DNA from: Clostridia bacterium
GTDB lineage: Bacteria > Bacteroidota > Bacteroidia > Bacteroidales > 4484-276
DNA length: 64,000 bases
Direction of reading: 5' to 3'
Assembly (NCBI GenBank): GCA_009928785.1
Contig: SABY01000001.1
Location: 23,633-87,632 of the forward strand
Shown here piece by piece: positions 12,372 through 47,689 of the stretch. The notes beneath the pieces were generated by a model. That model searched no databases and was not told the origin of the DNA. It saw only the letters and a list, made by a program, of their open reading frames with translations. Each line of letters opens with the position of its first letter. Position 1 is the first letter of the stretch. The position numbers were made by a program, and so were the translations under genes.

Positions 12372-12520
12372 AGACGCACGTCCCCCGCATGGGCGGGGCA
12401 GGCTGTGCGTCTCTACAATTGAAATCCCAAATCCCAAATCCCAAATCCCAAATCCCAAATCCCAAATCCCAAATCCAATTTCTTACTTCTAACTTCTATT
12501 CTCTTCCCTCTTAATTTCGT
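12372..12520. repeat. Composite intergenic element: nested GC hairpin, CAATTGAAATCC junction, (AAATCCC)x7 and an AT-rich tail
   Basis: Outer stem AGACGCAC/GTGCGTCT (12372-12379 / 12405-12412). Inner stem CCCCGC-ATGG-GCGGGG. Seven perfect heptads at 12422-12470 plus one imperfect. Tail TTCTTACTTCTAACTTCTATTCTCTTCCCTC. Confidence 0.9.
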
Positions 12521-12551
12521 TATTTTGCACCCAAATTTATAATTTCTGCGC

Positions 12552-14426
12552 ATGAATCTGCTCACGGTCGATAATGTTACCAAATCGTTTGGCGAGAAAT
12601 TGCTTTTCGAGAACATCTCCTTTGGAATCTCATCGGGGCAAAAACTGGCGCTGATAGCACGAAATGGCACTGGTAAGACCAGCCTGCTGCGCATCCTCAC
12701 CGGCGCCGAACCGCCCGATAGCGGCCTGGTGACCGTCGGCAACGACGTGCGGATTTCCTATTTACCCCAAAATCCGGAAATGGACGAGAGCCATACCATT
12801 ATGCAATATCTCTTTGCCACCGGCAACAAGATGATGGCGCTTTTGCAGCAATACACAATGCTTTCGTCAGGCCATAATTTTGATAAAGAAACCGCTCAGC
12901 ATATCACGGGTCAGATGGACGAGCTGCATGCCTGGAATTACGAAGCGCGGATAAAAGAAATTCTGAGCAAATTCGACATTGTGGACCTGCAGCAAAGTAT
13001 CGGGCAACTTTCGGGTGGCATGCGCAAAAAGGTGGCGCTGGCCAAGGCGCTTATCGACGATGCCGATCTGGTGATACTCGACGAGCCTACCAACCACCTC
13101 GACGTAACTACCATCGAATGGATAGAAAACTACCTGAATCGCCAAAACCTGGCGCTGTTGCTGGTAACCCACGACCGCTATTTCCTGGATCAGGTTTGCA
13201 ATGAGATTTTGGAAATCGACAATCAGACTTTGTACAAATACCGCGGCAACTACACCTATTTCCTCGAAAAGCGCGAAGAGCGTTTGGCCAACGAAAAAAC
13301 CGAAATCCTAAAAGCTCGCGCCAACTACAAAATGGAGCTTGATTGGATGCGCCGAATGCCGCAAGCCCGCGCTACCAAAGCCAAAGCCCGCGAAGACAAT
13401 TTCTACCGTATCGAAGAAATAGCCAAGACGAGCCTGGGCGAGCAAACGCGCGGCTTCGACGTGGACATGCAGCGCCTGGGTGGAAAAATTTTGGAACTCA
13501 ACAACATCGAAAAAGCCTACGACACCAAGAAGTTGCTCAACGATTTTTCGTACATCTTCAAGAAAGGCGACCGCATCGGGATAATTGGTGCTAATGGCGT
13601 CGGGAAAAGTACGCTGCTGCAAATAATCATGGAAGAGGTGAAACCCGACAAAGGACGCGTGGTGAAAGGCAAAACCCTCGAAATTGGTTATTTCCGCCAG
13701 GAGGGCCTGCCCATGAAAGAAGACAAGCGTATCATCGACATTGTGAAAGATATTGCCGAGCAGGTCGAGTTTAAAAAGGGGAGCATGACGCCGACGCAGT
13801 TTCTTTCGTATTTCAATTTTAAAACCGACATCCATTACAACTATTATTCGAGCCTGAGCGGAGGAGAGCGACGCAAACTATATCTGCTCACCACGTTGCT
13901 GCGCAAGCCCAACTTTCTGATTCTCGACGAGCCTACCAACGATCTCGACATCGATACGCTGAATAAACTTGAAGAATTTCTGATGGGTTACGAGGGTTGT
14001 CTGATGATCGTGTCGCACGACCGCTATTTTATGGATCATGTGGTGGATCATATTTTTGCTTTTGAAGGCGATGGACGCATTCGCGATTACTACGGCAACT
14101 ATTCGGAGTATGCCCGTTTGAGAAGATTACATGAGAAGCAGCAGAAATCGGTTCCGCGCAACGCCGCTCCACGCACCGAAACGCGTAGCAAATCTGATTT
14201 GCAAAAGCCTACTTACAAGCAGGTAAAAGAATACGAAGCGCTCACCGAAAAAATTGATCTTCTCGAACTCGAGCGCGCGGCAATTCTCGACAACCTTAAC
14301 AGCGGCAACGGCACGCCGGATGAGCTGATCAAATGGTCGGAGGGAATTGCTGAAATTATGCGCCGGATTGACGAAGCCAGCGACCGCTGGCTCGAACTGA
14401 GCGAAATCATCGAAGCCGCCAACTGA
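12552..14426 (+). CDS. ABC-F family ATPase (two ABC cassettes, no TM domain)
   Basis: Walker A motifs GTGKTS and GVGKST. ABC signatures LSGGMRKK and LSGGERRK. Charged C-terminal coiled-coil tail. Confidence 0.9.
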   Translation: MNLLTVDNVTKSFGEKLLFENISFGISSGQKLALIARNGTGKTSLLRILTGAEPPDSGLVTVGNDVRISYLPQNPEMDESHTIMQYLFATGNKMMALLQQYTMLSSGHNFDKETAQHITGQMDELHAWNYEARIKEILSKFDIVDLQQSIGQLSGGMRKKVALAKALIDDADLVILDEPTNHLDVTTIEWIENYLNRQNLALLLVTHDRYFLDQVCNEILEIDNQTLYKYRGNYTYFLEKREERLANEKTEILKARANYKMELDWMRRMPQARATKAKAREDNFYRIEEIAKTSLGEQTRGFDVDMQRLGGKILELNNIEKAYDTKKLLNDFSYIFKKGDRIGIIGANGVGKSTLLQIIMEEVKPDKGRVVKGKTLEIGYFRQEGLPMKEDKRIIDIVKDIAEQVEFKKGSMTPTQFLSYFNFKTDIHYNYYSSLSGGERRKLYLLTTLLRKPNFLILDEPTNDLDIDTLNKLEEFLMGYEGCLMIVSHDRYFMDHVVDHIFAFEGDGRIRDYYGNYSEYARLRRLHEKQQKSVPRNAAPRTETRSKSDLQKPTYKQVKEYEALTEKIDLLELERAAILDNLNSGNGTPDELIKWSEGIAEIMRRIDEASDRWLELSEIIEAAN

Positions 14427-14441
14427 TCCAACCTTTATTAC

Positions 14442-15326
14442 ATGAAAAACCAGAAGAAGGCCATTACTTATGCGCTCATCACGGTGGTGCTATGGTCCAC
14501 TATTGGCTCGGCTTTTAAGATTACCTTGCGATACATCGCCTTTGCCGACTTACTTTTTTATGCTGTTGTCGTTTCCTTTGTCTTTTTCCTTACGGCAATG
14601 GCTGTTACCGGACGCCTCAAAAAAATGCGGTATCTACGTTGGCAAGATATACGGCTGGCGGCTATACTCGGATTCCTCAATCCCTTTTTATACTACCTTG
14701 TGTTGATTCGTGCCTACGAACTTTTGCCCGCACAGGAAGCCGGAACCCTCAACTACATCTGGCCGGTGGTGCTGGTGTTGCTTTCGGTGCCGCTGCTCCA
14801 TCAGCGCATTGGCTGGGTAAGTATGCTGGCAATCCTGATAAGCTTTGCAGGCACGCTCGTGATTGCCACCGGCGGGCGGCTGCTAAGTCTGCATTTTAGC
14901 AGTGGTATTGGTGTGTTGCTTGCCGCCGGCAGCGCCGTTTTTTGGTCGCTGTATTGGATTTTTAATGTCAGGGATAAAAAGGAAGAGATCATCAAACTCT
15001 TTCTCAACTTCAGCTTCGGATTGCTTTATGTCTTTATTTATCTACTCCTCACCAAAGGCTTCCGTTTGCCGGATGCACGCGGTTTGGCCGGCAGCGTTTA
15101 TATTGGCTTGTTTGAAATGGGAATCACCTTTGTGCTGTGGCTCAAAGCGCTTCAATATTGCAGCACTACAGCCAAAATTTCCAATCTGGTTTTTCTTTCG
15201 CCTTTCCTGTCGTTGATTTGGATACGATATGCTGTGGGCGAAACCATTATGCTTTCGACCATTGCCGGGTTGGCTCTGATAGTAGGAGGAATTTTACTGC
15301 AACGTTTTTCGGGAAGGTGGGAGTAG
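14442..15326 (+). CDS. EamA/DMT superfamily transporter
   Basis: About 10 predicted TM helices in two EamA-like halves; 294 aa. Confidence 0.8.
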   Translation: MKNQKKAITYALITVVLWSTIGSAFKITLRYIAFADLLFYAVVVSFVFFLTAMAVTGRLKKMRYLRWQDIRLAAILGFLNPFLYYLVLIRAYELLPAQEAGTLNYIWPVVLVLLSVPLLHQRIGWVSMLAILISFAGTLVIATGGRLLSLHFSSGIGVLLAAGSAVFWSLYWIFNVRDKKEEIIKLFLNFSFGLLYVFIYLLLTKGFRLPDARGLAGSVYIGLFEMGITFVLWLKALQYCSTTAKISNLVFLSPFLSLIWIRYAVGETIMLSTIAGLALIVGGILLQRFSGRWE

Positions 15327-15333
15327 CGCCCGG

Positions 15334-16461
15334 CTATAAATCGGTGTTGTATTTCACAAATTTAATTTCGATGGGAACGCGCGGAAAGTCCTCGCCCAGT
15401 GAAGTTTTGAGTGCGCTATAATAGCGCGTCATCATCTGCGCAGCTTTTTGTTGCTGAAATGCCGCTACCGAATCTGAATATTCACGCGTGAGCACCAGAT
15501 GTACCAGGGAGTTGTTTTCGACATAATAATCTTTGATGCCTGGCTGCAAAGTTTGTTTATAAGCCCAGTCGTTGATAAAAGGTATAAATTTTCGCAACAG
15601 CGGAACCGAAAGCTGCGACACAGTGCTGTAATCGCTTATTGGTTCTTTGGCGGTTGCAGGATTGTCCGCTGTGTTTGGCTTTTCTTCAGCTACCGGGATA
15701 TCCTTTTCCAGCTTAGGTTCTGGTTTGGCAAATTCCTCTTTGGGCTGGTCGGCAACTTTCGGGGCAGCTTCTATAGCAGCAGCAGATTCTGTTTCCGGCT
15801 CCGAATTTTGCGCCAGCAACTGGTTGTCCCTAATTTCATCAGGAATAATTGCTTCAGTTTCGGCAGCAGTTGCAGCGGGCACAACTTTCTTTTCGGGAAT
15901 TACGTAAAGTGGCCGATAGGAAGCCTCCCAAGTGAGATATTTCTTGTGGCTGATTACGGCAGGTGTCGGAGAAACCGCATCGGCAGAAGCGGCAGATTTC
16001 TCATCGGAAAATGGCTGGTCGGATAAATCAGTATTAGCAAGTTCAGAAGCCGTGTTCGTTTCGGCATCATCATCAATCGCAGCTATTGTGTTTTTGTCGG
16101 GCGATGGCGAGGCAGGTTTGTTTATTGATGTGTTGGTGCGATTGGTTGTGGCTGTAGTAAGCGACGAAAGATCGGTAGTGCGAAGTGCGAACAGAAGCAC
16201 AATTGTTAATGCTGCGGCTCCCACAATCATTATTGTGCCGGTAACAATATTACGTCGGGTGGTAAGGGTAGGCTGAAGCGTATCGGGATGCACATACTCA
16301 TCGTTTTCGCCATTGAAATGACGGTTGCTGAAAAACCGACTGCGCGCTTCCTGCTCCATTGCCGCGAAATATTTGCGCGGATAAACATCATGATGGGTCA
16401 GCCTATCGAGGAAATCCTGATCCGACAATGTTTTCAACTTATTTCTGAATCTTCTGAGCAT
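15334..16461 (-). CDS. Hypothetical single-pass membrane protein with a long low-complexity (T/A/P/E-rich) linker
   Basis: TM segment IVTGTIMIVGAAALTIVLLFAL, a disordered middle, and a structured C-terminal ~100 aa. ATG verified. Confidence 0.55.
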   Translation of the reverse strand: MLRRFRNKLKTLSDQDFLDRLTHHDVYPRKYFAAMEQEARSRFFSNRHFNGENDEYVHPDTLQPTLTTRRNIVTGTIMIVGAAALTIVLLFALRTTDLSSLTTATTNRTNTSINKPASPSPDKNTIAAIDDDAETNTASELANTDLSDQPFSDEKSAASADAVSPTPAVISHKKYLTWEASYRPLYVIPEKKVVPAATAAETEAIIPDEIRDNQLLAQNSEPETESAAAIEAAPKVADQPKEEFAKPEPKLEKDIPVAEEKPNTADNPATAKEPISDYSTVSQLSVPLLRKFIPFINDWAYKQTLQPGIKDYYVENNSLVHLVLTREYSDSVAAFQQQKAAQMMTRYYSALKTSLGEDFPRVPIEIKFVKYNTDL

Positions 16462-16596
16462 AGATTTTTTGGTAATGATTTATCGATTTGCTCAACAAAA
16501 TTATAACAATGAATTATAGGGAAAATCTATTTTTGCTTTTTTAACACCTGCGCAATATCTTCTAATTTTTAATAACGCCCAAATTTAAAAGTTGTT

Positions 16597-17778
16597 TTGA
16601 GAGCCTACCCACGCATTACTGATCTCATAAATGATCTCACCGGAATCGACCTAAACCTGCCCGTTCAGACGTATGGCTTTTTTGTTGCACTGGCCTTCGT
16701 AGCAGGGGGGTTTATACTTTGGCTTGAGCTGGATCGGAAAGAAAAATCCGGCCAAATAAAGTTGAAAAACAGCCAGATGGTGACCAGGAAGAAGCCTGTG
16801 GCCGTCGAGTATCTCATTTCCGGAATCTTGTATTTTATCATCGGATTCAAGCTTACGGGAATCATTTTTAATTATGACGAGTTTACTGCCAATCCCCAGG
16901 GTTTTATATTTTCCGCCAAGGGATTTTATATTGGCGGTTTGGTGGTAATGGTGCCGGTATTGTGGATGATTTACCGGAAAGGGAAAAAAGCGGAAAGTGC
17001 AAACCCGGATGATGAAAAAGAATTGCGGGCGCGCGATCTTACACCGGCCATCGTTTTGGTAGCTGCTGTAGCCGGTATTGCCGGAGCCAAAATATTTGAT
17101 GTCGTCGAGCATCTCGATCAACTCTTCCGCGACCCGCTCGGCACACTATTTTCCTTTAGTGGATTAACTTTTTATGGAGGATTGCTCGTAGCGGCTTTTG
17201 CTGTAGGCATTTATGGCGAGCGCCACAATATCCGGTGGCCGGTAATGGCCGATGCGGTGGCTCCTGCTTTGATGCTTGCTTACGGCATAGGGCGCATTGG
17301 CTGCCAACTTTCCGGCGACGGCTGCTGGGGAATCGTGAATACGCTCACCAAACCAGCGTGGCTTACCTGGTTGCCCGATTTTATGTGGAGTTCCACCTTT
17401 CCGCACAACGTCATCAAAGAAGGCCTGCCACTGATGGATTGTAATGGAACCTATTGTTATGAATTGGGGCAGCCGGTTTTTCCTACTTCCCTTTACGAAA
17501 CGTTGATCGCTATTACTTTCTTTGGGGTGCTGTGGGCGCTCCGAAAACGTTTCACTGTTGCCGGAATGTTATTTTCGCTCTATCTGGTGCTAAATGGCAT
17601 AGCACGTTTTATTATCGAATTTGTGCGTGTTAATATTCGCTATCAGGTAGCTGGCTTCGAGGTGTCGCAGGCACAGATTATTGCTGTAATGCTGATTGTG
17701 GTGGGTGGCTTCGGTTTGTTTTATTTCAGATATTTGCATCCGATGGAAAGAAATCGCAAAAAATCAAATCCCAAATGA
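16597..17778 (+). CDS. lgt: Prolipoprotein diacylglyceryl transferase family protein
   Basis: Polytopic membrane protein. Lgt-like blocks [17 protein letters not shown] and [15 protein letters not shown] start with no nearby ATG. The last codons are built from the heptad-like AAATCNN repeat. Confidence 0.7.
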
Positions 17779-18000
17779 CAAAAGACAAATCACAAATAAA
17801 TCCCAAATTCCAAATTCTCAAAACCGTCGCTGGTTGAGCTTGTCGAAATCTGGTTATTAGGATTTATTTGGAACTTGTTTATTTGGAACTTGGAATTTCC
17901 CCAAAACTTGTTTATTTGGAACTTGGAATTTCCCCAAAACTTGTTTATTTGGAACTTGGAAATTCTCCAGGGCTTGTTATTTTGGAATCTGGGATTTAGC
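17764..18000. repeat. Composite repeat: period-7 tract (NNNNCAA), a central ~35 bp, then a 33-bp unit x~3.8; the arms form a long imperfect inverted repeat
   Basis: Unit CTTGTTTATTTGGAACTTGGAATTTCCCCAAAA starts at 17874, 17907, 17940 and 17973. Left AAATCCCAAATTCCAAA is nearly the reverse complement of right TTTTGGAATCTGGGATTT. Confidence 0.85.
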
Positions 18001-18042
18001 AGTAAATTGCCAAACAGTTAATAATCCATTGAAAATATAATT

Positions 18043-18867: not shown

Positions 18868-18923
18868 AGAATTTTTAATGGTTGCGGGAAAACCGCCGGA
18901 GAAAAACCTCTTGATACATAATA

Positions 18924-19280
18924 ATGGAAATGACAGCCAAGCGCGTAATTCAAACCAATGTTCCGGCAGACGATTCCCTGCGACAAATCAAAGACAGCCC
19001 CACGCGTAGTTTCCTCAAAGCGGTGAGCTGGCGGTTCATCGCTTCGGCTACCACATTTTTGGTAACCTTTATTATTTTTAAAAATGCTACCGACAAAACC
19101 GTCGATGAAGTGCTCGAAGCAGCCTGGTACGTAACCATGGTGGAGTTTAGTGCTAAGATATTTATCTACTATTTGCATGAGCGCATGTGGACTAACATAC
19201 GGTGGGGAAAATATTGGCAGCGCAACTACTGGATACGCCGACGTTGGAAACGCCTCTATCGCAGAATGCACCTGAATTAG
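18924..19280 (+). CDS. DUF2061-like small membrane protein
   Basis: Pattern SFLKAVSWRFIASATTFLVTF ... KIFIYYLHERMW is typical of DUF2061. Confidence 0.6.
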   Translation: MEMTAKRVIQTNVPADDSLRQIKDSPTRSFLKAVSWRFIASATTFLVTFIIFKNATDKTVDEVLEAAWYVTMVEFSAKIFIYYLHERMWTNIRWGKYWQRNYWIRRRWKRLYRRMHLN

Positions 19281-19287
19281 AAAACAA

Positions 19288-19371
19288 GAAGTTAGAGGGG
19301 AGAAGTTAGAGGGGAGAAGTTAGAGGGGAGAAGTTAGAGGGGAGAAGTTAGAGGGGAGAAGTTAGAGGGGA
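19288..19371. repeat. Perfect tandem repeat (GAAGTTAGAGGGGA)x6, 14-bp unit
   Basis: Six identical units counted from 19288 to 19371, starting 8 bp after the stop at 19280. Confidence 0.95.
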
Positions 19372-19479
19372 GAGATGAATTTAGAATTTTAGCACCAAAG
19401 GAGCGTTATTCCGATCGATCCCGGCAGGGCGACAGCAGTAAAATAGTTAAAAAAATAATCAATTTATTGTCATAAAAAA

Positions 19480-22785: not shown

Positions 22786-24090
22786 ATGAGTTCTTTTGAA
22801 ATTTGCGGAGGCAAAAGGCTCAGTGGACAGATTACACCCCAGGGTGCCAAAAACGAGGCGCTTCAGGTGATTTGTGCTGTTTTACTCACGAGCCAACCTG
22901 TTACCATTAGCAACATTCCGGAGATACGTGATGTGATAAAGCTAATCGACCTGCTGAAGTTGCTTGGCGTGGTGGTGGAAAAAACCGACGAGTCAACCTG
23001 GCGCTTTACCGCCTCAGATATTCATCTCGATATTTTGCTTACGGATAAGTTTCGTAAAAAAAGTGCGGAGTTGCGCGGCAGTATCATGATTATCGGTCCG
23101 CTGCTTGCACGCTTCGGTAAGGCATTTATTCCGCAGCCTGGTGGCGACAAAATAGGCCGTCGTCGGCTCGACACGCACTTTATTGGGTTACAAAAGCTGG
23201 GTGCCAAATTCGATTATAACTTTCAGAAGAACTACTACAGCGTGGTAGCGGAGCGTCTGGAAGGTACCTACATGCTCCTCGACGAAGCCTCCGTTACCGG
23301 CACCGCCAACGTACTCATGGCTGCCACCCTGGCGCATGGCACCACCACCATTTTCAACGCCGCCTGCGAGCCTTATGTGGTGCAGCTCTGTAAAATGCTC
23401 AACAGCATGGGTGCCCGAATCGAAGGTATTGGCAGCAATCTGCTGATTGTACACGGTGTAGAAGTTTTATCCGGCTGCAGCCATAAGCTCTTGCCCGACA
23501 TGATCGAGGTGGGTAGTTTTATCGGGCTGGCAGCACTCACCCAATCCAACATAAAAATTACCGGCGTCAACCCGGCCGATCTGGGCATCATCCCCGACGT
23601 TTTTGGAAGGCTCGGCATCCGTATGCAACTCAATGCCGACAGCATCGAAATTCCCGAACAGGAGAGTTACGAGATCGAAACTTTTATGGATGGCTCCATC
23701 ATGACCATCTCTGATGCTCCGTGGCCCGGCTTTACTCCCGACCTGATTAGTATTGCGCTGGTGGTGGCCATACAAGCCAAAGGCAGCGTGTTGATCCATC
23801 AGAAAATGTTTGAAAGCCGTCTGTTTTTCGTTGACAAACTCATCGACATGGGCGCTCGTATTATTTTGTGCGACCCGCACCGCGCCACCGTTATTGGCCT
23901 CGCCCGGCAATACAAGCTGCGCGCTATCCGTATGAGTTCGCCCGACATACGTGCTGGTGTAGCCTTGCTGCTCAGTGCGCTATCGGCTGAAGGCAAAAGC
24001 ATCATCGACAACATTGAGCAGATCGACCGCGGCTACCAAAACATCGATGGACGCCTGCGTGCAATTGGCGCGGAAATTGAAAGAATTTAG
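22786..24090 (+). CDS. murA: UDP-N-acetylglucosamine 1-carboxyvinyltransferase
   Basis: Full-length MurA pattern (GAKNEALQVICA...). The active-site loop PGGDKIGRRRLDTH has Asp (codon GAC at 23146-23148) where E. coli has Cys115. Confidence 0.95.
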   Translation: MSSFEICGGKRLSGQITPQGAKNEALQVICAVLLTSQPVTISNIPEIRDVIKLIDLLKLLGVVVEKTDESTWRFTASDIHLDILLTDKFRKKSAELRGSIMIIGPLLARFGKAFIPQPGGDKIGRRRLDTHFIGLQKLGAKFDYNFQKNYYSVVAERLEGTYMLLDEASVTGTANVLMAATLAHGTTTIFNAACEPYVVQLCKMLNSMGARIEGIGSNLLIVHGVEVLSGCSHKLLPDMIEVGSFIGLAALTQSNIKITGVNPADLGIIPDVFGRLGIRMQLNADSIEIPEQESYEIETFMDGSIMTISDAPWPGFTPDLISIALVVAIQAKGSVLIHQKMFESRLFFVDKLIDMGARIILCDPHRATVIGLARQYKLRAIRMSSPDIRAGVALLLSALSAEGKSIIDNIEQIDRGYQNIDGRLRAIGAEIERI

Positions 24091-24231
24091 AAGTTAGATG
24101 TCAGAAGTTAGATGTTAGAAATTAGATTTAGGATTTTTAATTAGGAAGTAGAGACGCACAGCCTGCCCCGCCCATGCGGGGGACGTGCGTAAATAATTAC
24201 GAATGAATATTGAATTTTGAATTTTGAATTG
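24090..24231. repeat. Composite element: degenerate 14-mers (GAAGTTAGATGTNA), the same GC hairpin as at 12372 (inverted), and (TGAATTT)x~4
   Basis: 24148-24190 is a perfect reverse-complement match to 12374-12416 (43 nt). 14-mers at 24090-24131; heptads at 24204-24231. Confidence 0.9.
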
Positions 24232-27099: not shown

Positions 27100-27122
27100 A
27101 AGAGGAGTCATGTAGTGATGAA

Positions 27123-27275
27123 AGACCAAACCCTTCGGAGGACGTGTGTCTGGAAATGCAATTGAAATCCGAATACCGAATACCGAATACCGAATACTGA
27201 ATACCGAATACCGAATACCGAATAACGAATACCGAATAACGGATAACGAATAACGAATAACGGATAACGAATTTT
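27123..27275. repeat. Composite element: short hairpin region, CAATTGAAATCC junction and 15 heptads (GAATACC grading to GAATAAC/GGATAAC)
   Basis: AGACCAAACCCTTCGGAGGACGTGTGTCT at 27123-27151. The junction at 27159-27170 is identical to 12416-12427. Heptads counted from 27171 to 27275. Confidence 0.9.
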
Positions 27276-27337
27276 AGCCCCAACGAGCCGACATCAAAGC
27301 CAAACCAACGACAATTTGTTAACCCGACAACATTACT

Positions 27338-27910: not shown

Positions 27911-27996
27911 GAAATAATCTCCTTTGATAAACCTCAGTGGCGAATCTCCCTCCCGACTTACATTTCTCAACAAGCCCTTACCTATAAAGGCCTCTA

Positions 27997-28140
27997 TTCT
28001 AAATAAGTATTTAGCTACCTAATTGATTGTTAATACATTATTTTAAAATATCTCCGACTTTCTAAATAAGTCATCATCAGGCTGTAATATAGCTTGGGAA
28101 TGATATTTGGGTAATTTTGCAATCTATATTTATTCTAAAT
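27997..28140 (+). promoter_or_regulatory. Three TTCTAAAT boxes upstream of feoAB; the first sits in a perfect palindrome CTAAATA-AG-TATTTAG (27999-28014). Candidate operator.
   Basis: Boxes at about 27997, 28070 and 28133; palindrome read directly. Function is not established. Confidence 0.25.
28112..28119 (+). promoter_or_regulatory. -7 promoter box TAATTTTG upstream of feoAB
   Basis: Exact TAnnTTTG match 46 nt upstream of the ATG at 28165. Confidence 0.4.
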
Positions 28141-35194: not shown

Positions 35195-35281
35195 TGCAAT
35201 TATTTTGTGTGCAAAAATAGAAAAGCCACCCGCTATGGGTGGCTTTTGTTGAAAAATCGTTGCTCTTTTGTTAAGAGTTCA

Positions 35282-39547: not shown

Positions 39548-39606
39548 AATGATTGGCAAATCAGAGCTTTAGCATTTCTTAACAGCGCCCCGGCGGCGAT
39601 TCTTAC

Positions 39607-39614: not shown

Positions 39615-39643
39615 CAAAACGTTCCACATAAAAATTTTAAAAC

Positions 39644-41920
39644 ATGCTTTTCGATCTCGATCTAATCCAAAACGTTTACAATAAATTTCCTGCAAGAATC
39701 CAAAAGGCGCGTCAGCTTTTAAAGCGTCCGCTTACGCTCACCGAAAAAATCCTCTATGCCCATTTGTGGGATGAGGTGGGAAAAGAATATAACCGTGGCG
39801 CCGACTATGTGGATTTTGCCCCCGACCGCGTGGCCATGCAAGATGCTACCGCCCAGATGGCGCTGCTTCAATTTATGCAGGCCGGGCGCGACAAAGTGGC
39901 GGTGCCAAGCACGGTGCATTGCGATCACCTGATACAGGCGCGCGTGGGAGCCAAAGAAGATTTGAAGGTTGCTAAAGATAACAACCGGGAGGTTTTTGAT
40001 TTTCTTTCGTCGATATCCAATAAATATGGTATTGGTTTCTGGAAGCCGGGTGCCGGCATCATCCATCAGGTGGTGCTCGAAAACTATGCTTTTCCCGGCG
40101 GGATGATGATAGGAACCGATTCGCACACCGTGAATGCCGGCGGGCTTGGCATGATAGCCATTGGTGTAGGCGGCGCCGATGCTGTGGATGTAATGGCCGG
40201 CATGCCCTGGGAGCTGAAGATGCCGCGCATCATCGGTGTAAAATTAACGGGTAAACTCAGCGGATGGACATCCTCCAAAGACGTCATTCTGAAAGTTGCT
40301 GGTATCCTTACGGTAAAAGGCGGAACAGGTGCTATTGTTGAATATTTTGGCCCTGGCGCCGAGCATCTGAGCTGCACAGGCAAGGGCACGATATGTAATA
40401 TGGGCGCCGAGATTGGAGCAACCACTTCTTTATTCGGCTACGACCGGCGTATGTCGGATTACCTGCGTGCTACCGGACGTGCTCTGGTGGCCGACGCTGC
40501 CGATAAAATTGCCGGACATCTAATCGGTGATGAAGAAGTTTATAACGATCCCGGAGAATATTTCGATCAGGTTATCGAAATTGATCTTTCCCAACTGGAG
40601 CCGCACATCAACGGGCCTTTTACCCCGGATTTGGCCACGCCGGTATCGGAATTTGCGCAGGCAGCCCGCGACAACAACTGGCCACTGACGCTGGAGGTAG
40701 GCTTAATTGGTTCCTGTACCAATTCATCTTACGAAGACATTACCCGTGCTGCTTCAGTGGCGCAGCAGGCGCTCGACAACGATCTGGAAGTGAAATCGGA
40801 ATATACCGTTACGCCCGGTTCCGAGCAGGTGCGGTTTACAGTAGAACGCGACGGCTACCTCGACATCTTCGAAAAAATTGGCGGCGTGGTGCTGGCCAAT
40901 GCATGTGGCCCCTGCATCGGACAATGGGCACGCCACAATGCCGACAAGAAAGAGAAAAACTCTATCATGACGTCGTTCAATCGCAACTTTGCCAAACGCA
41001 ACGACGGCAACCCCAACACGCACGGTTTTGTGGCTTCGCCCGAAATTGTAACGGCTTTTGCCATTGCCGGCACCCTGGAGTTTAATCCGCTCACCGACAG
41101 CCTTATTAATAAAAAAGGAGAAAAAATAAAACTGAAAGAACCACAGGGAATCGAACTGCCTATTAAAGGTTTTGCTGTGGAAGACAATGGCTACCAGGAA
41201 CCTGCTCGCGATGGCAGCAACATCAGCGTTGAGGTGGCTCCCGACTCCGACCGTTTGCAGTTGCTTGCGCCTTTTGCACCCTGGGAAGGTCACGACATTA
41301 AAGGTCTAAGATTATTAATAAAAGCCAAAGGCAAATGTACCACCGACCACATTTCGATGGCCGGCCCCTGGCTGCGCTACCGTGGTCACCTGGATAATAT
41401 TTCCAACAACCTGCTTATTGGCGCCGAAAATGCCTTTACCGGAAAAACCAATCTTATCAAAAACCAGCTAAACGGTGCATATGATGCAGTGCCGGCGGTG
41501 GCAAGAGCTTACAAAGCGCAAGGCATTGGAACCATTGTGGTGGGCGACGAAAATTATGGCGAAGGCTCCTCACGCGAACATGCCGCTATGGAGCCGCGTC
41601 ATCTGGGCGTTAGAGCTGTGGTGGTGCGTAGTTTTGCACGCATACACGAAACCAACCTAAAAAAGCAAGGGATGCTCGCGCTTACCTTTGCCGACAAAAC
41701 CGATTACGGTAAAATTATGGAAGACGATACTTTCGACATCACAGGTCTCGAAACCTTTGAGCAAGGCCGTCCGCTGCAACTCATCGTTCACCACTTCGAC
41801 GGCACCACCAACAAAATGGAGATGCTGCACACCTATAGTCCGGTACAAATAGAATGGTTTAAAGCCGGCTCGGCGCTCAACCTTATCAAAAAGCAGAATG
41901 TGTTGACGGGGAGGAAGTAG
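39644..41920 (+). CDS. acnA: Aconitate hydratase (about 750-aa type)
   Basis: Aconitase family blocks including the Fe-S ligand contexts GSCTNSS and [10 protein letters not shown], plus the swivel domain. The stop TAG (41918-41920) lies inside the first GGAAGTA heptads. Confidence 0.9.
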
Positions 41921-42223
41921 GAAGTAGGAAGTAGGAAGTAGGAAGTAGGTAGCAGGAAGTAGGTAGTGGTTAGAACAAAGAAATTAGAATTTACCGTTGA
42001 GATGCCCGATCGTGTTCGTTTAATATTGTTGATGAATGAAACCTCTGCAGGCTTCCTGTCAATAATTCCCGGATTCATCAGGGATAGATGGAAGAAGAGC
42101 CAACTGCGAACTGCGAACTGTGTACTGTGGACTGTGGACTGTGAGCTGCCAACTGCGAACTGAGAACTGTGAGCTGCCAACTGAGAACTGCGAACTGTGG
42201 ACTGCGAGCTGCCAACTGCAACT
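41913..42223. repeat. Composite element: (GGAAGTA)x~8, a ~130-bp core, then 17+ heptads of the form GNNNACT
   Basis: Left array 41913-41968. Right array 42099-42223 (GCCAACT, GCGAACT, GTGGACT, GTGAGCT...), with a higher-order ~28-bp pattern. Confidence 0.9.
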
Positions 42224-42434
42224 GCCTTTTGTTGATTTTTTAACCCAAAACCTGGGTAAAGGTATCCACAAGCTATTGGGTTGATAAATTTTTGTATTTT
42301 AAACTAAATATCAGAAAACCAATGATATAGTTTTGAAATTCCTTCGATTTCCTTTTTTATCCCTTTTGGCACGATACTCTCAAGTTCCCTTTTATTGTTA
42401 TAAATAAATTGTTAAACCTAAAAAGTAATACGCC

Positions 42435-42623
42435 ATGAACAAACTACAATTAAAAGGAAACTGGAACACTGTGAAAGGAAACCTGAAACAGAAGTATGCT
42501 AATCTTACAGACGATGATCTAACGTATGCCGAAGGCAAAGAAGACGAACTGCTCGGACGCCTGCAAAAGAAAACCGGCAAAACCAAGGAGGAGCTGACTG
42601 ACGAAATCAATAAAATTAAATAG
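42435..42623 (+). CDS. CsbD family general stress protein
   Basis: 62 aa; [23 protein letters not shown]...[20 protein letters not shown] is the CsbD pattern. Confidence 0.85.
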
Positions 42624-42625
42624 TC

Positions 42626-42769
42626 ATGCGCAGCCTACTTTATATTATCGCCGTAATCCTGGTTATTGGCTGGCTGCTTGGATTCTTTGTTTACACAGCC
42701 GGCGGACTGATCCACATCCTGTTAGTATTAGCCGTAATCGCTATCCTGATTTCGCTGATCCGCGGATGA
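42626..42769 (+). CDS. Lmo0937-family small membrane protein (47 aa; not in the ORF track)
   Basis: Hand translation gives MRSLLYIIAVILVIGWLLGFFVYTAGGLIHILLVLAVIAILISLIRG. ATG at 42626 and TGA at 42767-42769, starting 2 nt after the csbD stop. Confidence 0.6.
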   Translation: MRSLLYIIAVILVIGWLLGFFVYTAGGLIHILLVLAVIAILISLIRG

Positions 42770-42835
42770 CGTCCGAATCCTTACAACAACAGTAATCTTT
42801 TCAAAGACTAAATTTCAAACTTAAAAATTAATTTT

Positions 42836-43339: not shown

Positions 43340-43380
43340 AGTTAAGTTGAGTGATTGATTAGTTGATTGAGTGAATAGAG

Positions 43381-43419
43381 AATCCCGGCTGCATGTGTGC
43401 GCCGGGATTTATTTTTTTT
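43381..43419 (+). terminator. Rho-independent terminator after the acidic lipoprotein gene
   Basis: AATCCCGGCTGCATGTGTGCGCCGGGATTT stem-loop followed by ATTTTTTTT. Confidence 0.6.
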
Positions 43420-43452
43420 GGTGATTAAGATTACGTATGTACTAACTTGATT

Positions 43453-43490
43453 TAGAACAAAATCCCGGTTGCAGTTGTGCTCCGGGATTT
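43453..43490 (-). terminator. Terminator-like hairpin for the minus-strand PLP enzyme gene (paralogous to the hairpin at 43381)
   Basis: AATCCCGGTTGCAGTTGTGCTCCGGGATTT; on the minus strand it is followed by TTTTGTTC. Confidence 0.45.
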
Positions 43491-43571
43491 GTGTATTTAT
43501 CCGCACTTTATGATATTGGCAGGAATCCGGATTTTTAACTTTAACAACCCGAAAGCCTTTTATTCAGCCAG

Positions 43572-44774
43572 TTATTTGATCATTCCAGCCTGCTTCAGGC
43601 ATTTTTTGATCATGTCGAAAGTGCGGTCGATCTCGCTGTCCAATCCTACGGAAAAACGGATGAGACCTTCGGAAAGACCCATTTCTTTTTGTTTCTCTTC
43701 GGGGACTTCTGATGAGGTGCTTTTGCCTGAGTTGCTAAACAATGTTTTAAAATAGCCGAGGCTCACCGCCAGATAGCCAACCCCTTCGCTTTCCATCATC
43801 TCCATTACTTCGGCGGCTTTGTCGGCGGTGCCGGCATCGAATGAGAGCATGCCTCCAAAACCATATTTTTCGTTCATAATCGATTTCAACAAGGCGTGGC
43901 CGGAATGTTTTTTGAGGCCGGGATAGTTCACCGTAATTCCAATTTCTTCCAGCTTCTCGGCCAGATACATGGCGTTGCGGCTGTGCTGTTGCATGCGGAT
44001 ATGCAGTGTGTGCAGGTTTTTCAAAATTGACGACGAGCGAAACGGATCGAGCACAGGGCCCAAAAGCATCGCAGTGCCGCTGTTCACGTCGATGAGCGAG
44101 GCAATAAACTCTTTGCTTCCGCAGATGGCACCGGCTACGCAATCGTTTTTACCATTAACAAATTTGGTGAGGCTGTACAACACCACGTCGGCGCCCAGTT
44201 GCGCCGGGGTAATCATCATCGGGGTAAAGGTGTTATCAACCAGCAACTTTGCGTTATGCTTGTGTGCTATGTCGGCCAGACGCCGCACATCCGAAACTTC
44301 GAGCAGCGGGTTGGTAACAGTTTCGGTATAAACGATGCGCGTGTTGGGTTTGATGGCGGCTTCCACTTCTTTCAGATCGGTAATATTTACGAAAGTCACC
44401 CCGATGTTGAATTTCTCCACGTAGTTGTTCAGAAAAGCAAAAGTGCCTCCGTAGGTGGTGCGGCTTGCCACAATGTGGTCGCCGGCGTTGCAAAGTTGCA
44501 AAATTGCGGAAGTGATGGCGCCCATGCCCGATGCTGTAACCCAGGCTGCTTCGGTGCCTTCCATGGCGGCCAGCGCATCAGCCAGATATTTATTGCTGGG
44601 GTTCCAGTGGCGTGAGTAAAGGAAACACCCTTCGGCCTCGCCATGAAAAGTGTCGAGCATGGTCTTGGCCTGCATAAAAGTGAATGTTGCCGAATCGGTG
44701 ACGGATGGATTTACATCGCCATACTCGCCAAACTGTAATAAATCCTGAATTTTACTTGCCGGATCAAATTTCAT
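43572..44774 (-). CDS. Cys/Met-metabolism PLP-dependent enzyme (methionine gamma-lyase-like)
   Basis: PLP-lysine context YSLTKFVNGKND and N-terminal YSRHWNP; 400 aa, typical of the family. Exact reaction specificity was not determined. Confidence 0.8.
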   Translation of the reverse strand: MKFDPASKIQDLLQFGEYGDVNPSVTDSATFTFMQAKTMLDTFHGEAEGCFLYSRHWNPSNKYLADALAAMEGTEAAWVTASGMGAITSAILQLCNAGDHIVASRTTYGGTFAFLNNYVEKFNIGVTFVNITDLKEVEAAIKPNTRIVYTETVTNPLLEVSDVRRLADIAHKHNAKLLVDNTFTPMMITPAQLGADVVLYSLTKFVNGKNDCVAGAICGSKEFIASLIDVNSGTAMLLGPVLDPFRSSSILKNLHTLHIRMQQHSRNAMYLAEKLEEIGITVNYPGLKKHSGHALLKSIMNEKYGFGGMLSFDAGTADKAAEVMEMMESEGVGYLAVSLGYFKTLFSNSGKSTSSEVPEEKQKEMGLSEGLIRFSVGLDSEIDRTFDMIKKCLKQAGMIK

Positions 44775-44946
44775 AATTGTATATTTTTTATGATGATTAA
44801 ATTTTGAAATGTCGAAGCAAAACTATAGAAAATGCACCGGATTAAAGGTTGTTTCTCTGTTGATTTTAAAAACTGTAATCAAAAACATGAACATCATAAA
44901 AAACTGTAAGTTTGCTAATTGATTTTTAGAATGTAGATTTCAGTTT

Positions 44947-45083
44947 AAACAAACAAACACCGAACACCAAACAACAAACACCAAGCAACAAACTTGAGCG
45001 TAGCTGCCTGCCCCGACCCATCGGGGAAATCCCGAGAGCTTTGCGATTCGGGAAACAAACAACGAACAACAAACAACGAACAG
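44947..45083. repeat. Composite element: (CAAACAC/CAAACAA)x~7, two GC hairpins, then (AAACAAC/AACGAAC)x~4
   Basis: Hairpins CCCCGA-CCCA-TCGGGG (45011-45026) and CCCGA-N12-TCGGG (45031-45052). Heptad tracts at 44947-44993 and 45053-45083. Confidence 0.85.
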
Positions 45084-45087
45084 TTTT

Positions 45088-45558
45088 ATGACCGAAAATT
45101 TCAAACTCGACAGCCTCGACCGGCGCATTCTGGCGCTACTCACCGCCGACGCCCGGATGCCGTATCTCCAGGTAGCGCGCCATTGCAAAGTGTCGGGAGC
45201 AGCCATCCATCAGCGGGTGCAAAAAATGACCGAAGCCGGCGTCATCACCGGCGCGCAGGTAACCATTTCGCGCAGCGGCTTTGGCTATCTCACCTGCGCT
45301 TTCATCGGCTTACAAGTCAACCTTACTGCTACAAGCACACATGAGGAGGTTTTTCAGAAAATAAAACAAATCCCTGAAATCGTCGAGTGCCACCATATCA
45401 CCGGCAAATATTCGCTGTTGGTAAAAATTCTGGCTCGTAACAATGAGCAGCTCAAAAACATCATCGTCGAGCAAATCCAGTCCATCCCGGAGATTGTAGC
45501 CACCGAAACCTTCATCTCGCTCGAAGAGGGTTTTGTGCGCCCGCTGCCTGTGGAATAA
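45088..45558 (+). CDS. Lrp/AsnC family transcriptional regulator
   Basis: N-terminal HTH (LDRRILALLTADARMPYLQVARHCKVSGAAIHQRV) and a C-terminal RAM domain; 156 aa. Confidence 0.9.
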   Translation: MTENFKLDSLDRRILALLTADARMPYLQVARHCKVSGAAIHQRVQKMTEAGVITGAQVTISRSGFGYLTCAFIGLQVNLTATSTHEEVFQKIKQIPEIVECHHITGKYSLLVKILARNNEQLKNIIVEQIQSIPEIVATETFISLEEGFVRPLPVE

Positions 45559-45616
45559 ACAAGCTTCAAAAACTAATTTATCTTTGGCGATAGAAACAGA
45601 TAAGGTGAAGCAAATA

Positions 45617-47284
45617 ATGACTTTTCGTATTGCCATGTTAATCGTTGCTTTGGTAATTTTCGATTGCCAATTGCAGGCACAAGACACCACCAAAATCGAC
45701 TCGTTGCGTTACATAGCTTTGATGGCGCCGGGCGATTCGGCACGCGTGCACGAATATGTGGAGCTATCCAAGATGCTTATGATCTCTGATGTGCAACAGG
45801 CATTGCAAGTGGCGCAGCAGGCAATGGATATTGCAGAAAAAGCCGCTGACCAAAAACTTCTGGCACATGCCTGCCTCAATCTGGGCAATGTTTACTTCAC
45901 CAACGGCTTGCTCGAGCTTTCCACACAATATTTTTTGCGATACATCGAAATAAATAGCCGGCTTGGCAACGAAAAAGGTGTGGCCTACGGACGCATTAAT
46001 CTGGGAGCTGTGTATCTGCAATTGGAGCAATACCAGCAATCGAGAACGTATTTTGAAAAAGCGCTCATTTTTTTCGAACACCTGGCCGATTCTATGCAGT
46101 CTGCTTCGCCCCACAACGAAATGCTGATTATCTATAACAATCTGGGCATTGCTTGTCAAAACCTTCAGGAGCCTGAATTAGCCAAAAATTATTATGAAAA
46201 AGGAATTCTGATGGCTCGACAGGCTGGGAGCGATCCGGAGGTTCTGGGCATCCTGCTCAACAACCTGGGTGCACTTTTTATCGCCCAGGGTCATTCCGAT
46301 AAAAGCTACGAATATCTCATCGAATCTTTCCGTTTGCGCCAATCAGCCAACGATCTGGTAGGCATGGGACAATCGCATCGCACCCTGGCCGAATATTATA
46401 TGACCATCAACGACGAGCGTACTGCCATCGATCATCTTAATGAAGGTTACCGGTTGGCTGTTCAGGTTGGAAATATGAGTTTACTAACTGAGGTGGCGAT
46501 AAAACTTTTCGAGGTTTACCAGCGGCAGAGTAATGCCGACTCGGCGCTGAAATACTATATGGCTTACTCCGATGTAAACGAAAAGCTCAATCGGGCAGAA
46601 GCAGCCAATGCACTCACCCAGTATGAAATTACCAGCAAATACGAAGAAAGTCGCCGCCTGATGAGATTGAAACAGCAACGCAAAGAGCAGCGCTACCTTT
46701 TTATCGGGTTTATCCTGCTCTTGGTTTTGGCCATCATCAGCCTGCTCTATTTTCTTTCGCACAGCCGCAACAAACGCCTGCGACTCGAAGCCGAGAACAT
46801 CCAGTTGAACGCACAGAAAATGGAGCTTGAAAAAAATAATCTTGAAAAAGAGCTTGAAATCAAGAAAAAAGAGCTGACCACCAATGTGATGTATCAGATA
46901 CAGAAAAACGAACTTATTTACGAAATTGTACAGAAGCTGCAAAAGCAGATGGCAACGAGCCAGCGACCCGATCAGCGATGGCTGTTACAAACCATCCGCG
47001 ATCTGGAGCGTACGCACGACACTTCCGTGTGGCAGGAATTTGAGGTACGTTTCGAACAGGTGCACAATGATTTCTACCAAAAGCTCAACGAAATCGACGC
47101 CAGCCTCACACCCAACGAGCGGCGCCTGTGTGCCTTCCTAAAGCTAAATATGAGTTCCAAAGAAATTTCGCTCATCACCGGTCAGTCGCCCCGCACCATC
47201 GACGTGGCCAGAACCCGCCTGCGCAAAAAACTCAACCTCACCAACTCCGATACAGGACTTGTAGAATATCTCGCCGCGCTCTGA
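45617..47284 (+). CDS. Transmembrane one-component regulator: periplasmic TPR repeats, a TM helix, a coiled coil and a LuxR-type HTH
   Basis: Signal peptide MTFRIAMLIVALVIFDCQLQAQ, TPR-like repeats, TM YLFIGFILLLVLAIISLLYFL and a C-terminal LuxR HTH (ERRLCAFLKLNMSSKEISLITGQSPRTIDVARTRLRKKL). ATG verified at 45617. Confidence 0.8.
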   Translation: MTFRIAMLIVALVIFDCQLQAQDTTKIDSLRYIALMAPGDSARVHEYVELSKMLMISDVQQALQVAQQAMDIAEKAADQKLLAHACLNLGNVYFTNGLLELSTQYFLRYIEINSRLGNEKGVAYGRINLGAVYLQLEQYQQSRTYFEKALIFFEHLADSMQSASPHNEMLIIYNNLGIACQNLQEPELAKNYYEKGILMARQAGSDPEVLGILLNNLGALFIAQGHSDKSYEYLIESFRLRQSANDLVGMGQSHRTLAEYYMTINDERTAIDHLNEGYRLAVQVGNMSLLTEVAIKLFEVYQRQSNADSALKYYMAYSDVNEKLNRAEAANALTQYEITSKYEESRRLMRLKQQRKEQRYLFIGFILLLVLAIISLLYFLSHSRNKRLRLEAENIQLNAQKMELEKNNLEKELEIKKKELTTNVMYQIQKNELIYEIVQKLQKQMATSQRPDQRWLLQTIRDLERTHDTSVWQEFEVRFEQVHNDFYQKLNEIDASLTPNERRLCAFLKLNMSSKEISLITGQSPRTIDVARTRLRKKLNLTNSDTGLVEYLAAL

Positions 47285-47303
47285 TGAAGTCGGCAAACAA
47301 GAT

Positions 47304-47689
47304 TAACCTTTCTATCTCCTCCTTCATCGGACCGTAGAAAGTTGCTACCCCCCCCACAGACTTTCGAGCGTCCGAAGGACCTCGAAACGTCAACAAACGA
47401 AACTAACCTTTCTATCTCCTCCTTCATCGGACCGTAGAAAGTTGCTACCCCCCCCACAGACTTTCGAGCGTCCGAAGAACCTCGAAACGTCAACGAACGA
47501 ACCTAACCTTTTCTATCTCCTCCTTCATCGGACGATAGAAAGTTGCTACCCCCCCACAGACTTTCGAGCGTCCGAAGGGACCTCGAAACGTCAAACAAAC
47601 AACAAACAACAAACAACAAACAACAAACAACGAACAACAAACAACGAACAACAAACAACAAACAACGAACAACGAACAACAAACAACGA
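47304..47689. repeat. Three tandem copies of an exactly 100-bp unit (starts 47304, 47404, 47504) running into ~14 heptads (AACAAAC/AACGAAC)
   Basis: Copies 1 and 2 differ at 3 positions. Each unit has hairpin A (CTTTCTA...TAGAAAG, 47308-47341), a C7-8 run and hairpin B (TTTCGAG-C-GTCC-GAA-GGAC-CTCGAAA, 47362-47387). The heptad tract spans about 47593-47689. Confidence 0.9.

Follow-up and report, generated by a model that had tools for sequence, protein, structure and literature searches.

Heptanucleotide repeat arrays and dispersed GC-rich hairpin modules in the intergenic spacers of an uncultured Bacteroidales lineage

Introduction

Repeats of seven nucleotides fill the intergenic spacers of some bacterial lineages, and why they do so has been a question since their description in cyanobacteria around 1990. 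The question is raised again by a 64-kb stretch of contig SABY01000001.1 (GenBank assembly GCA_009928785.1, positions 23,633 to 87,632; hereafter the window, whose own numbering is used throughout). A first-pass annotation, made from the letters alone, described eight intergenic gaps (12372, 17764, 19288, 24090, 27123, 41913, 44947 and 47304) in which a GC-rich stem-loop is flanked by heptad arrays, took them for related copies of a composite element of no described family, and proposed that they were mobile hairpins leaving stacked 7-bp target duplications, tuning sites or spacers for neighbouring promoters, or elaborate terminators. Do these gaps harbor one element, or several things that happen to share a spacer? 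We report here that the observation is confirmed in part and its interpretation supported in part, and we incline, without great confidence, to see the arrays and hairpin modules as a clade-specific repeat landscape made of two types of part and not as a single composite element.

The window is a chromosomal housekeeping stretch, with ABC-F ATPase, lgt, murA, grpE-dnaJ-yciH, feoB, recA, uvrA and aconitase among its genes. Type IX secretion system (T9SS) sorting domains and a DUF805 RNA motif place the host in the Bacteroidota, and its nearest proteins are labelled Bacteroidales; the closest relatives of its MurA come from 'Bacteroidales bacterium' metagenome-assembled genomes (MAGs), graded at 99, 96-93 and 80% identity. 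The comparison covered this one 64-kb window and orthologous pieces of about 20 kb, which are referred to below as species A (L038), B, C and D or by their L numbers; L049, L050 and L056 are close strains, and L048 is an independent assembly.

Heptad arrays in the spacers

Arrays were located with Tandem Repeats Finder, which lists period-7 or period-14 repeats at every gap where they had been described (Table 1). The 7-nt periodicity is non-random: exact self-match runs at lag 7 number 12, against 0.1 expected from Markov shuffles, lag 14 yields eight, and lags 2-6 and 8-13 yield none. The 12 arrays are spread over 8 of the 37 intergenic gaps and total about 780 nt, or about 9% of the 8.7 kb of intergenic DNA in the window; they overlap genes only by their first units, at stop codons or in last codons. 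The units are 7 nt long, with higher-order periods of 14, 21 and 28, and perfect arrays (AAATCCC x8, the 14-mer x6) stand beside degenerate arrays with higher-order structure, as is expected from the life cycle of microsatellites. The earlier statement that the period is always 7 or 14 does not hold, as the flagged gaps also contain a 33-mer (x3.5, 17872-17987) and a 100-mer (x3, 47304-47600), and the gap at 41913 is not purely intergenic, having two small genes inside it.

Several details of individual arrays bear mention. The Tandem Repeats Finder call within the heptads downstream of murA is AGAAGTTAGATGTC x2.8 (24089-24127), the heptads at 17757-17822 are partly complementary to 17847-17883, and species A carries TCTAACT x3.4 at the site orthologous to 12480. 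The shared word TCTAACTTC does lie in the reverse complement of the 14-mer at 19288, as had been noticed. The GGGNATC repeats of Xanthomonas and Nostoc sit near starts and stops (PMC4692102), and by likeness to them the minus strand at 12422, (GGGATTT)8, may have G-quadruplex potential.

Only gaps whose next gene is on the + strand contain arrays (8 of 22, versus 0 of the 15 others; hypergeometric P of about 0.008 by our own arithmetic).

Variation between strains, species and a sister genus

The independent assembly L048 reproduces the entire 201-nt murA-resA spacer with five substitutions, which shows that the arrays, seen alike in independent assemblies, are not artefacts of assembly; the order of units in the TGAATTT array at 24204 differs there. 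Among close strains, compared at sites where the flanking 200 nt are 96-100% identical, the arrays vary in steps of seven: exactly 21 nt (three units) are missing from the murA-downstream heptads (24082-24127) in L049 and L050, L049 has a 7-nt deletion inside the 14-mer array at 19287, and L056 has 14 nt extra in the array at 45054-45082, the contigs with these indels being short-read assemblies and the +14 nt case lying at a contig start. Short-read contigs of the close strains tend to stop within arrays, and the arrays in the spacers account for the breaks that short-read contigs of this lineage have at these gaps.

Between species, it is the position of the arrays that is conserved and not their sequence. 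Arrays persist at orthologous gaps in five or six species, with differing units and copy numbers, and the strong arrays of these relatives are also dominated by multiples of 7. The spacer downstream of murA ranges from 65 to 222 nt across lineages, and that downstream of yciH measures 92, 112, 238, 247, 311 and 524 nt in six of them, the number of CGATTNA-type heptads in its arrays going from about 3 (species A) to about 45 (L064). Another L064 spacer, of 201 nt, consists almost wholly of about 25 heptads and has no hairpin. Units at orthologous places are related (AGARGTT or GAGCGAT, purine-rich, on the 5' side of the palindrome described below, and CGATTNA-type on its 3' side), which points to descent with turnover. 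The arrays at 41912 and 42102 are both missing from the orthologous gap of species C, and species D has few arrays beside the same housekeeping genes. In a neighbouring genus with the same gene order (MurA 79% identity) they are absent altogether: its spacers of 47-88 nt contain a canonical terminator and neither heptads nor a GTAG hairpin.

Because close strains differ by simple 7n indels, we suggest strand slippage in a 7-nt register as the process by which these heptanucleotide microsatellites would be born, expanded, contracted and decayed.

A different view would make the arrays cis-elements, serving either as multimeric binding sites or as A-rich, unstructured leaders and spacers through which translation, promoter access or mRNA stability would be tuned, with the hairpins as processing or stabilising sites as in hmw1A. 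The restriction to gaps preceding + strand genes fits such a role, as do the A/C-rich heptads that extend to 5 nt before the asnC-type start in three lineages, the persistence of arrays at the same gaps in five or six species, and the periodic core kept by degenerate arrays, such as CTG every 7 nt. Precedents exist in hmw1A, with its (ATCTTTC)n repeat and an RNase III hairpin (PMC12721329), in the reported effects of heptamers, including the TTTTGAA unit that also stands at 24204, on recF and recO expression in Nostoc (bioRxiv 10.1101/2022.06.06.494920) and in the translational role proposed for TAACTGA repeats (PMC4679880). Neither units, copy numbers nor spacer lengths are conserved at orthologous gaps, however; species D and the sister genus manage with few or no arrays beside the same genes, and the neighbours (murA, yciH, lgt, aconitase, asnC-type, ABC-F) have no functional theme. 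The unconserved spacer lengths, with the murA and yciH ranges given above, argue against exact spacing as the way in which the arrays would tune neighbouring promoters. To our knowledge, no protein is known to bind heptad arrays, and we judge the cis-element view rather unlikely as the explanation of the arrays. If the two-part landscape is the better description, any effect on expression would be weak or modulatory, exerted through leaders and spacers of variable length, and not a dedicated function.

Hairpins and their relation to the arrays

Folding z-scores, computed against dinucleotide shuffles, are -4.6 at 12372, -2.1 at 24148, -1.95 at 44990 (the module at 44994) and -4.4 for the 100-nt unit at 47304, and they are +0.5 to +0.8, with no significant structure, at 17818, 19374, 27112 and 41968, where GC-rich stem-loops had also been reported. 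The GC-rich centre at 17818-17866 is thus unstructured (z +0.5), as is the stretch between the arrays at 41912 and 42102 (z +0.8). The single architecture claimed for eight loci is therefore borne out for the arrays at all of them and for a significant hairpin at four only.

The suggested statistical association of hairpins and heptads is likewise not seen at the level of gaps, as a strong hairpin is found in 4 of the 8 gaps with arrays and in 9 of the 29 without (Fisher p=0.41); those in array-free gaps are mostly ordinary terminators with T-runs. Long arrays stand without any module or hairpin at 19287, 41912, 42102 and 48035. The hairpins and modules that do occur in array gaps belong to at least four unrelated families, and none of the eight loci has an Rfam family, at the gathering score or at E<=5. 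The proposed relatedness thus holds for several loci, by copying, and does not extend to one element. A regular-expression census of GC mini-hairpins gave five overlapping matches (three sites) in the window, versus 1.1 expected, and 0-3 per related locus; so few matches indicate that they are not an abundant family locally.

A GTAG-tagged palindrome and its 21-nt insert

One sign of relatedness was a 43-nt perfect match in opposite orientation between 12374-12416 and 24148-24190, which is upheld. Both copies belong to a palindrome, GTAG-AGACGCAC-loop-GTGCGTCT, with a stem of 8 bp. Orthologous spacers from five related species were drawn on for comparison, and in species A, B, C and L064 the palindrome lies directly 3' of the murA and yciH stops in sense orientation; across nine aligned intact copies, GTAG is invariant or nearly so. 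The yciH-downstream palindrome is intact at the orthologous sites of species A, B and C. Decay of the palindrome, with arrays kept, is seen in species D, in parts of L064 and, within the window, at 27112. The 64-kb window has 2-3 copies, and relatives have two orthologous ones in each 21-kb stretch.

The copy at 12372 is specific to the window lineage, the orthologous gap in species A having a different, weak hairpin. On the minus strand it reads GTAG-AGACGCAC, a 25-nt interior with a 21-nt mini-hairpin insert, and GTGCGTCT, and it folds at -28.3 kcal/mol. The reported likeness of its tail to the locus at 24090 is also confirmed, as the flanks (12372 in reverse complement) align well beyond the 43-nt core. 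The 12-nt junction CAATTGAAATCC has exactly two copies in the window, at 12416 and 27159, and marks a hairpin/array boundary each time.

The loops of species B and C are plain and 4 nt long (GGCC, GGTC, TGCT; downstream of murA, GGCC or GGTC), whereas a 21-nt insert, TGCCCCGCCCWWGCGGGGGAC, occupies the same loop position in the window, in species A and in L059, the last of these being a copy at an unrelated locus upstream of a SpoIIE-type gene. An 8-gene tree groups the window with B and C, and A with D; the distribution of the insert is not monophyletic and calls for two or more gains, for a precise loss or for gene conversion. A metagenome scan for the GTAG hairpin found it on three contigs, with a pattern that demanded the insert-bearing 3' half, so that plain copies went uncounted.

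The insert belongs to a wider motif of 20-22 nt, GCCTGCCCCG(N)CCCAT(N)CGGGG, found at 18 loci that are spread over about 13 low-GC MAGs from several Bacteroidota families, the local GC content being 0.37-0.57. The scan of the genome collection gave 37 matches, about half of them chance or terminator-type hairpins in high-GC phyla. Nesting of the mini-hairpin in a larger hairpin's loop was considered as a general rule and dropped, since only 4 of 21 cases (z<-2) show it. A further mini-hairpin, intact in L060 as AAGCCCCA(A/T)CGGGGCGA(C/T)ATCA, resembles by eye a decayed one in the window at 27273. In the Lentimicrobiaceae MAG CAZQIV01 (L015, L033), the motif stands head-to-head with a related GCCTGCCCGCCC-loop-GGCGGG hairpin about 24 nt away, a dimer that resembles a REPIN, the paired form of a repetitive extragenic palindrome (REP).

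That the hairpins are terminators or 3'-end stabilisers serving transcript ends, the arrays being incidental, is suggested by the sense-oriented position of the GTAG palindrome directly after the murA and yciH stops in at least five species, and GTAG- and CGTC-tagged REPs are typically downstream of genes (PMC3733652). We nevertheless regard this as very improbable. No T-run follows the array-adjacent hairpins, whose tails are AAATAAT, CTACAAT and AAACAAA, and they do not qualify as intrinsic terminators; a terminator scan of the window did not flag them and did flag canonical terminators at 35221 and 51158. Two palindrome copies (12372 and L059) and the module at 44994 lie upstream of genes, and the hairpin has decayed at window 27112, in species D and in L064 while the arrays remain. 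The earlier idea of elaborate terminators is not supported on these points.

Modules placed within arrays

As had been claimed, the arrangement of a GC-rich module with an array on either side turns up repeatedly beside unrelated genes. The 60-nt module at 44994 contains the hairpins CCCCGA-CCCA-TCGGGG and TCCCGA-12 nt-TCGGGA, and it is found, always flanked by AACRAAC, at three unrelated loci of MAG JAAYIU01; over the two genomes it adjoins four unrelated genes. The 7-mers flanking it are identical at two loci (AACAAAC/AACAAAC, AACGAAC/AACGAAC) and one base apart at a third. At the orthologous site in the asnC leader, species C and L055 carry two different GC-rich modules within two different heptad arrays, and one of these recurs after murA in species C with the same flanking heptads, making a third module that is found in two gaps. 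The 100-nt unit at 47304 folds at -26.7 kcal/mol, and L056, a close strain, has the first 40 nt of it before its contig ends. Plasmid and phage collections, searched with BLAST for the hairpin, the 60-nt module and the 100-nt unit, yielded no match.

These dispersals are what a composite mobile element would produce, if hairpin modules transposed and carried or targeted heptads, with the arrays as insertion/excision footprints or landing pads. Such an element would explain the presence or absence of the 21-nt mini-hairpin at an identical loop position without monophyly, the setting of the 60-nt module precisely between AACRAAC units at four loci that are unrelated and belong to two genomes, the third module with constant flanks at two species C loci, and the three different modules that three lineages have at one site upstream of asnC. 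We consider it unlikely. The modules lack terminal inverted repeats (read from the sequence, the 60-nt module begins TTGAGCG... and ends ...TTCGGGA), and identical flanking 7-mers are expected anyway within an array. Long arrays exist free of modules (about 25 heptads in L064, and the four window arrays named above), strain differences are plain 7n indels, and copy number is low, with the insert-bearing hairpin on three metagenome contigs and 3-5 mini-hairpin matches per 64 kb. Of the earlier idea of a mobile hairpin, the insertion polymorphism of the 21-nt mini-hairpin stands, and the stacked 7-bp target duplications do not, given the long hairpin-free arrays, the missing terminal inverted repeats and the simple 7n strain indels.

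No transposase, cas gene or REP-associated tyrosine transposase (RAYT) was found among the window open reading frames (ORFs) scanned or the annotated orthologues, in agreement with the first-pass view that this is neither a CRISPR locus nor an insertion sequence. The repeats are contiguous, without spacers, and no cas domains were found. A miniature inverted-repeat transposable element was also considered and set aside, there being no terminal inverted repeats and no way to distinguish flanking 7-mers from array units.

In L012 (5900-6040, MAG JAAYIU01), three copies of CCCTGAGCTTGTCGAAGGG with heptads between them stand just upstream of the 60-nt module, and the shorter form TGAGCTTGTCGAA is present in the window at about 17836-17848; by sequence likeness, these suggest a further widespread small GC-rich repeat.

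Other features of the window

A DUF2061 gene lies directly before the 14-mer array and is present in the window, species B, C, L063 and L064; species A and D lack it. A 50-aa Lys/Glu-rich ORF (MMANNKSNKETEKEIEDELKALLDRKQSERK...) lies at 47847-47999 (+), past the AACAAAC array and before the T9SS-substrate gene. The 152-nt repeat unit at 3707-4064 holds inner 10-nt repeats, AATTCGCGGA and CACGAATTCA, and a hairpin, TTTCTATGTCAGCCTGATAGAAA, whose stem is similar to the CTTTCTA...TAGAAAG stem of the 100-nt unit at 47304.

In the spacer upstream of feoB (27911-28116), a block of about 150 nt containing …ttctaaataagtatttagctacctaattgattgttaatacatt…ctttctaaataagtc… is near-identical in five species (window, L038, L060, L061, L062), very unlike the hypervariable spacers that bear arrays; the block probably serves as a conserved regulatory leader. 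The DUF805 RNA motif, the sole Rfam family at threshold in the window, is just upstream of a minus-strand ORF (62938-63444). The 527-aa protein with DUF7017 adjoins an M16-type peptidase ORF (5460-8594) and is near a Fic protein (4136-5314), a neighbourhood that may be a candidate defence island. Proteins with S1/CSD domains were formerly proposed to bind heptamer repeats (PMC4679880); nothing ties the S1/CSD-like protein of the window to the arrays.

Table 1. Repeats, hairpin modules and selected genes of the window, in order of position
Feature	Position	Strand	Remarks
152-nt unit x2.1 and partial third copy	3707-4064		convergent gap ppnP/fic
527-aa protein, DUF7017 and two S1/CSD-like domains of TOTE conflict systems	8486-10069	-	
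GTAG-tagged palindrome, extra inverted copy	12372-12416	-	divergent gap upstream of ABC-F gene
Junction CAATTGAAATCC	12416-12427	+	between hairpin and array
(AAATCCC) x7.9, units 100% identical	12422-12476	+	minus strand (GGGATTT)n
(TTCTAAC) x2.7	12480-12498	+	reverse complement of AGAAGTT heptad family
Degenerate A-rich heptads (CAAATCA, AAATTCC)	17757-17822	+	begin in last codons of lgt
33-nt tandem repeat x3.5, T/G-rich, inner 15-nt repeat	17872-17987	+	
DUF2061 membrane-protein gene	18924-19280	+	between inositol-monophosphatase and nfeD genes
14-mer (AGAAGTTAGAGGGG) x6.2, perfect	19287-19373	+	after DUF2061 gene; no significant hairpin adjoining
(AGAAGTT/AGATGTN) heptads	24082-24127	+	start at murA stop codon
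GTAG-tagged palindrome with 21-nt mini-hairpin in loop	24148-24190	+	after murA; z -2.1
(TGAATTT) x3.9	24204-24230	+	circular permutation of TTTTGAA
Decayed GTAG palindrome, GTAG..AGACCAAAC..CGGAGGACGTGTGTCT	27112-27151	+	after yciH; z +0.6
(CCGAATA/ACGAATA/ACGGATA) x14.9	27169-27272	+	downstream of yciH
Decayed mini-hairpin TTTTAGCCCCAACGAGCCGACATCAAAG	27273-27300	+	resembles intact L060 form, by eye
(AGGAAGT) x8	41912-41967	+	begins in last codons of aconitase gene
(AACTGCG-like) x17.9, 28-nt higher-order period	42102-42225	+	core CTG kept every 7 nt
csbD-like gene (62 aa)	42435-42623	+	inside gap flagged at 41913
DUF5670-like gene (47 aa)	42626-42769	+	inside gap flagged at 41913
(CAAACAC/AACAAAC) heptads, left arm	44947-44993	+	leader region of asnC-type gene
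60-nt module, two hairpins	44994-45053	+	exactly between heptad units; z -1.95
(AACAAAC/AACGAAC) x4.1	45054-45082	+	ends 5 nt before ATG of asnC-type gene
100-nt unit x3	47304-47600	+	each unit with two stable hairpins, AACRAAC-like heptads at end
(AACAAAC/AACGAAC) x13.4	47592-47687	+	
(AATTCAT) x2.9	48035-48054	+	14 nt upstream of T9SS-substrate gene; no hairpin
DUF805 RNA motif (RF03081)	63462-63530	-	68.5 bits, gathering score 51.1

Discussion

The history that we favour for the two-part landscape starts from arrays turning over by slippage. The GTAG palindrome after murA and yciH would predate the split of these species and would have gained its 21-nt loop mini-hairpin in the window genome. 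Modules embedded in arrays would then have been copied to other loci along with flanking heptads, giving the related composites at 12372, 24090 and 27123. We infer that arrays of the same unit most likely mediated the copying, by recombination or template switching, a transposition activity being the less likely route. The loop insertion, the dispersal of modules with their heptads to unrelated genes, and the absence of arrays and hairpins from the next genus are observed directly.

Several points weigh against this account. Slippage leaves aside why the unit is 7 nt and why it is found in this clade only, which implies a lineage-specific enzyme or repair defect. The same gap can hold unrelated units in different species, such as AACAAAC and NNNGCAG after the TPR gene, which could reflect arrays arising de novo again and again at favoured sites, or selection for the presence of one there. 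A/C-rich units reach the asnC start codon in three lineages with differing units, and these leaders, with the restriction to gaps before + strand genes, hint at a function at the RNA level. Finally, all three non-terminator GC mini-hairpins in the window lie within about 12 nt of an array, a closeness that exceeds what the gap-level test captures.

Short tandemly repeated repetitive (STRR) sequences in the strict sense are reportedly those of heterocystous cyanobacteria, with the units CCCCAGT, TTGGTCA and CAACAGT; the window arrays differ in their units and come from a member of the Bacteroidota, and were not assigned to them. They do match the known but poorly understood wider class of bacterial heptamer repeats, so that the arrays are not without a described family, as had been thought (PMC4679880, PMC4692102). 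Heptamer arrays with strain indels in 7-nt steps are on record from cyanobacteria, Beggiatoaceae and a few Bacteroidetes, including TAACTGA (PMC4679880), and heptamers are the commonest long-repeat class in many bacterial genomes according to Mrazek 2007, as related in PMC4679880. With STRR and heptamer long simple sequence repeats the window shares 7-nt units, many intergenic arrays, patchy lineage-specific distribution, mixed heptamers in one gap, positions just upstream of starts or after stops, and stepwise strain variation; unit length, number of loci and strain behaviour are all those of a heptanucleotide long simple sequence repeat. The TTTTGAA unit at 24204 is identical to a heptamer of Nostoc 7120, and TAACTTC, the reverse complement of AGAAGTT, agrees with TAACTGA at 5 of 7 positions. 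The window differs in having many different units within 64 kb and not one dominant unit, in its host, an uncultured Bacteroidales lineage known from metagenome assemblies, and in arrays that flank conserved or dispersed GC-rich hairpin modules, a feature not described in the cited heptamer-repeat papers.

The leader of H. influenzae hmw1A, with (ATCTTTC)n, likewise combines a heptad array with an RNA hairpin and changes length in 7-nt steps (PMC12721329). There, the repeats themselves pair with a G-rich arm, and the gene is a surface-adhesin contingency gene (PMC12721329), whereas the window arrays do not pair with the hairpins and have housekeeping neighbours. As regards phase variation more generally, the neighbours are again housekeeping genes, and by eye the arrays lie outside the putative ABC-F core promoter.

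The palindrome resembles GTAG-tagged REPs and REPINs (PMC3733652, PMC3116915), in that it is a short imperfect palindrome (about 24-45 nt), has an unpaired GTAG at one terminus and lies outside genes, for the most part directly after them and in sense, with occasional inverted copies. GTAG- and CGTC-tagged REPs generally follow genes and presumably work as RNA elements; the survey reported GTAG repeats from several phyla, and from Bacteroidetes CGTC repeats only (PMC3733652). The core hairpin, said to be without a described family, thus fits the GTAG-tagged pattern but apparently not its copy number: the window has 2-3 copies in its 64 kb, at conserved orthologous positions, as against dozens to hundreds, and no RAYT was seen among the window ORFs scanned or the annotated orthologues.

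For the 21-nt insert, the nearest counterpart, by description, is the small dispersed repeat (SDR) of Nostoc. SDRs are said to span 21-27 nt, in the account that Elhai et al. gave of Nostoc in 2008. The insert is likewise hairpin-forming, GC-rich, dispersed and nested in another repeat, and it is present or absent at orthologous sites; its unit size, dispersal and presence/absence are those of an SDR-like repeat, with gene conversion as an alternative for the last. It comes from another phylum and has few copies per genome region. SDR-like repeats have been reported from Nostocaceae only (PMC5861425).

It is quite doubtful, though worth stating, that the mini-hairpins of about 21 nt (GCCTGCCCCG-N-CCCAT-N-CGGGG and relatives) are a very small mobile element active across Bacteroidota, the counterpart of the Nostoc SDRs, inserting site-specifically in hairpin loops and between heptads, with the arrays of this clade mechanistically coupled to it. 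If so, the heptads would be landing pads or by-products of the same single-strand DNA transaction, and the puzzle of 7-nt repeats would be tied to an enzyme that this clade has and its array-free sister genus lacks.

What this locus offers is not a new system, nor does it answer why 7-nt repeats fill the spacers of some lineages; its value is a nested mini-hairpin, together with a comparative series. GTAG-tagged palindromes and nested mini-hairpins are hereby extended to Bacteroidales. In the series, five or six species share their gene order and differ strongly in their arrays, near-identical strains show 7n indels, and the sister genus is array-free; a comparison of gene content over it could point to the factor responsible.

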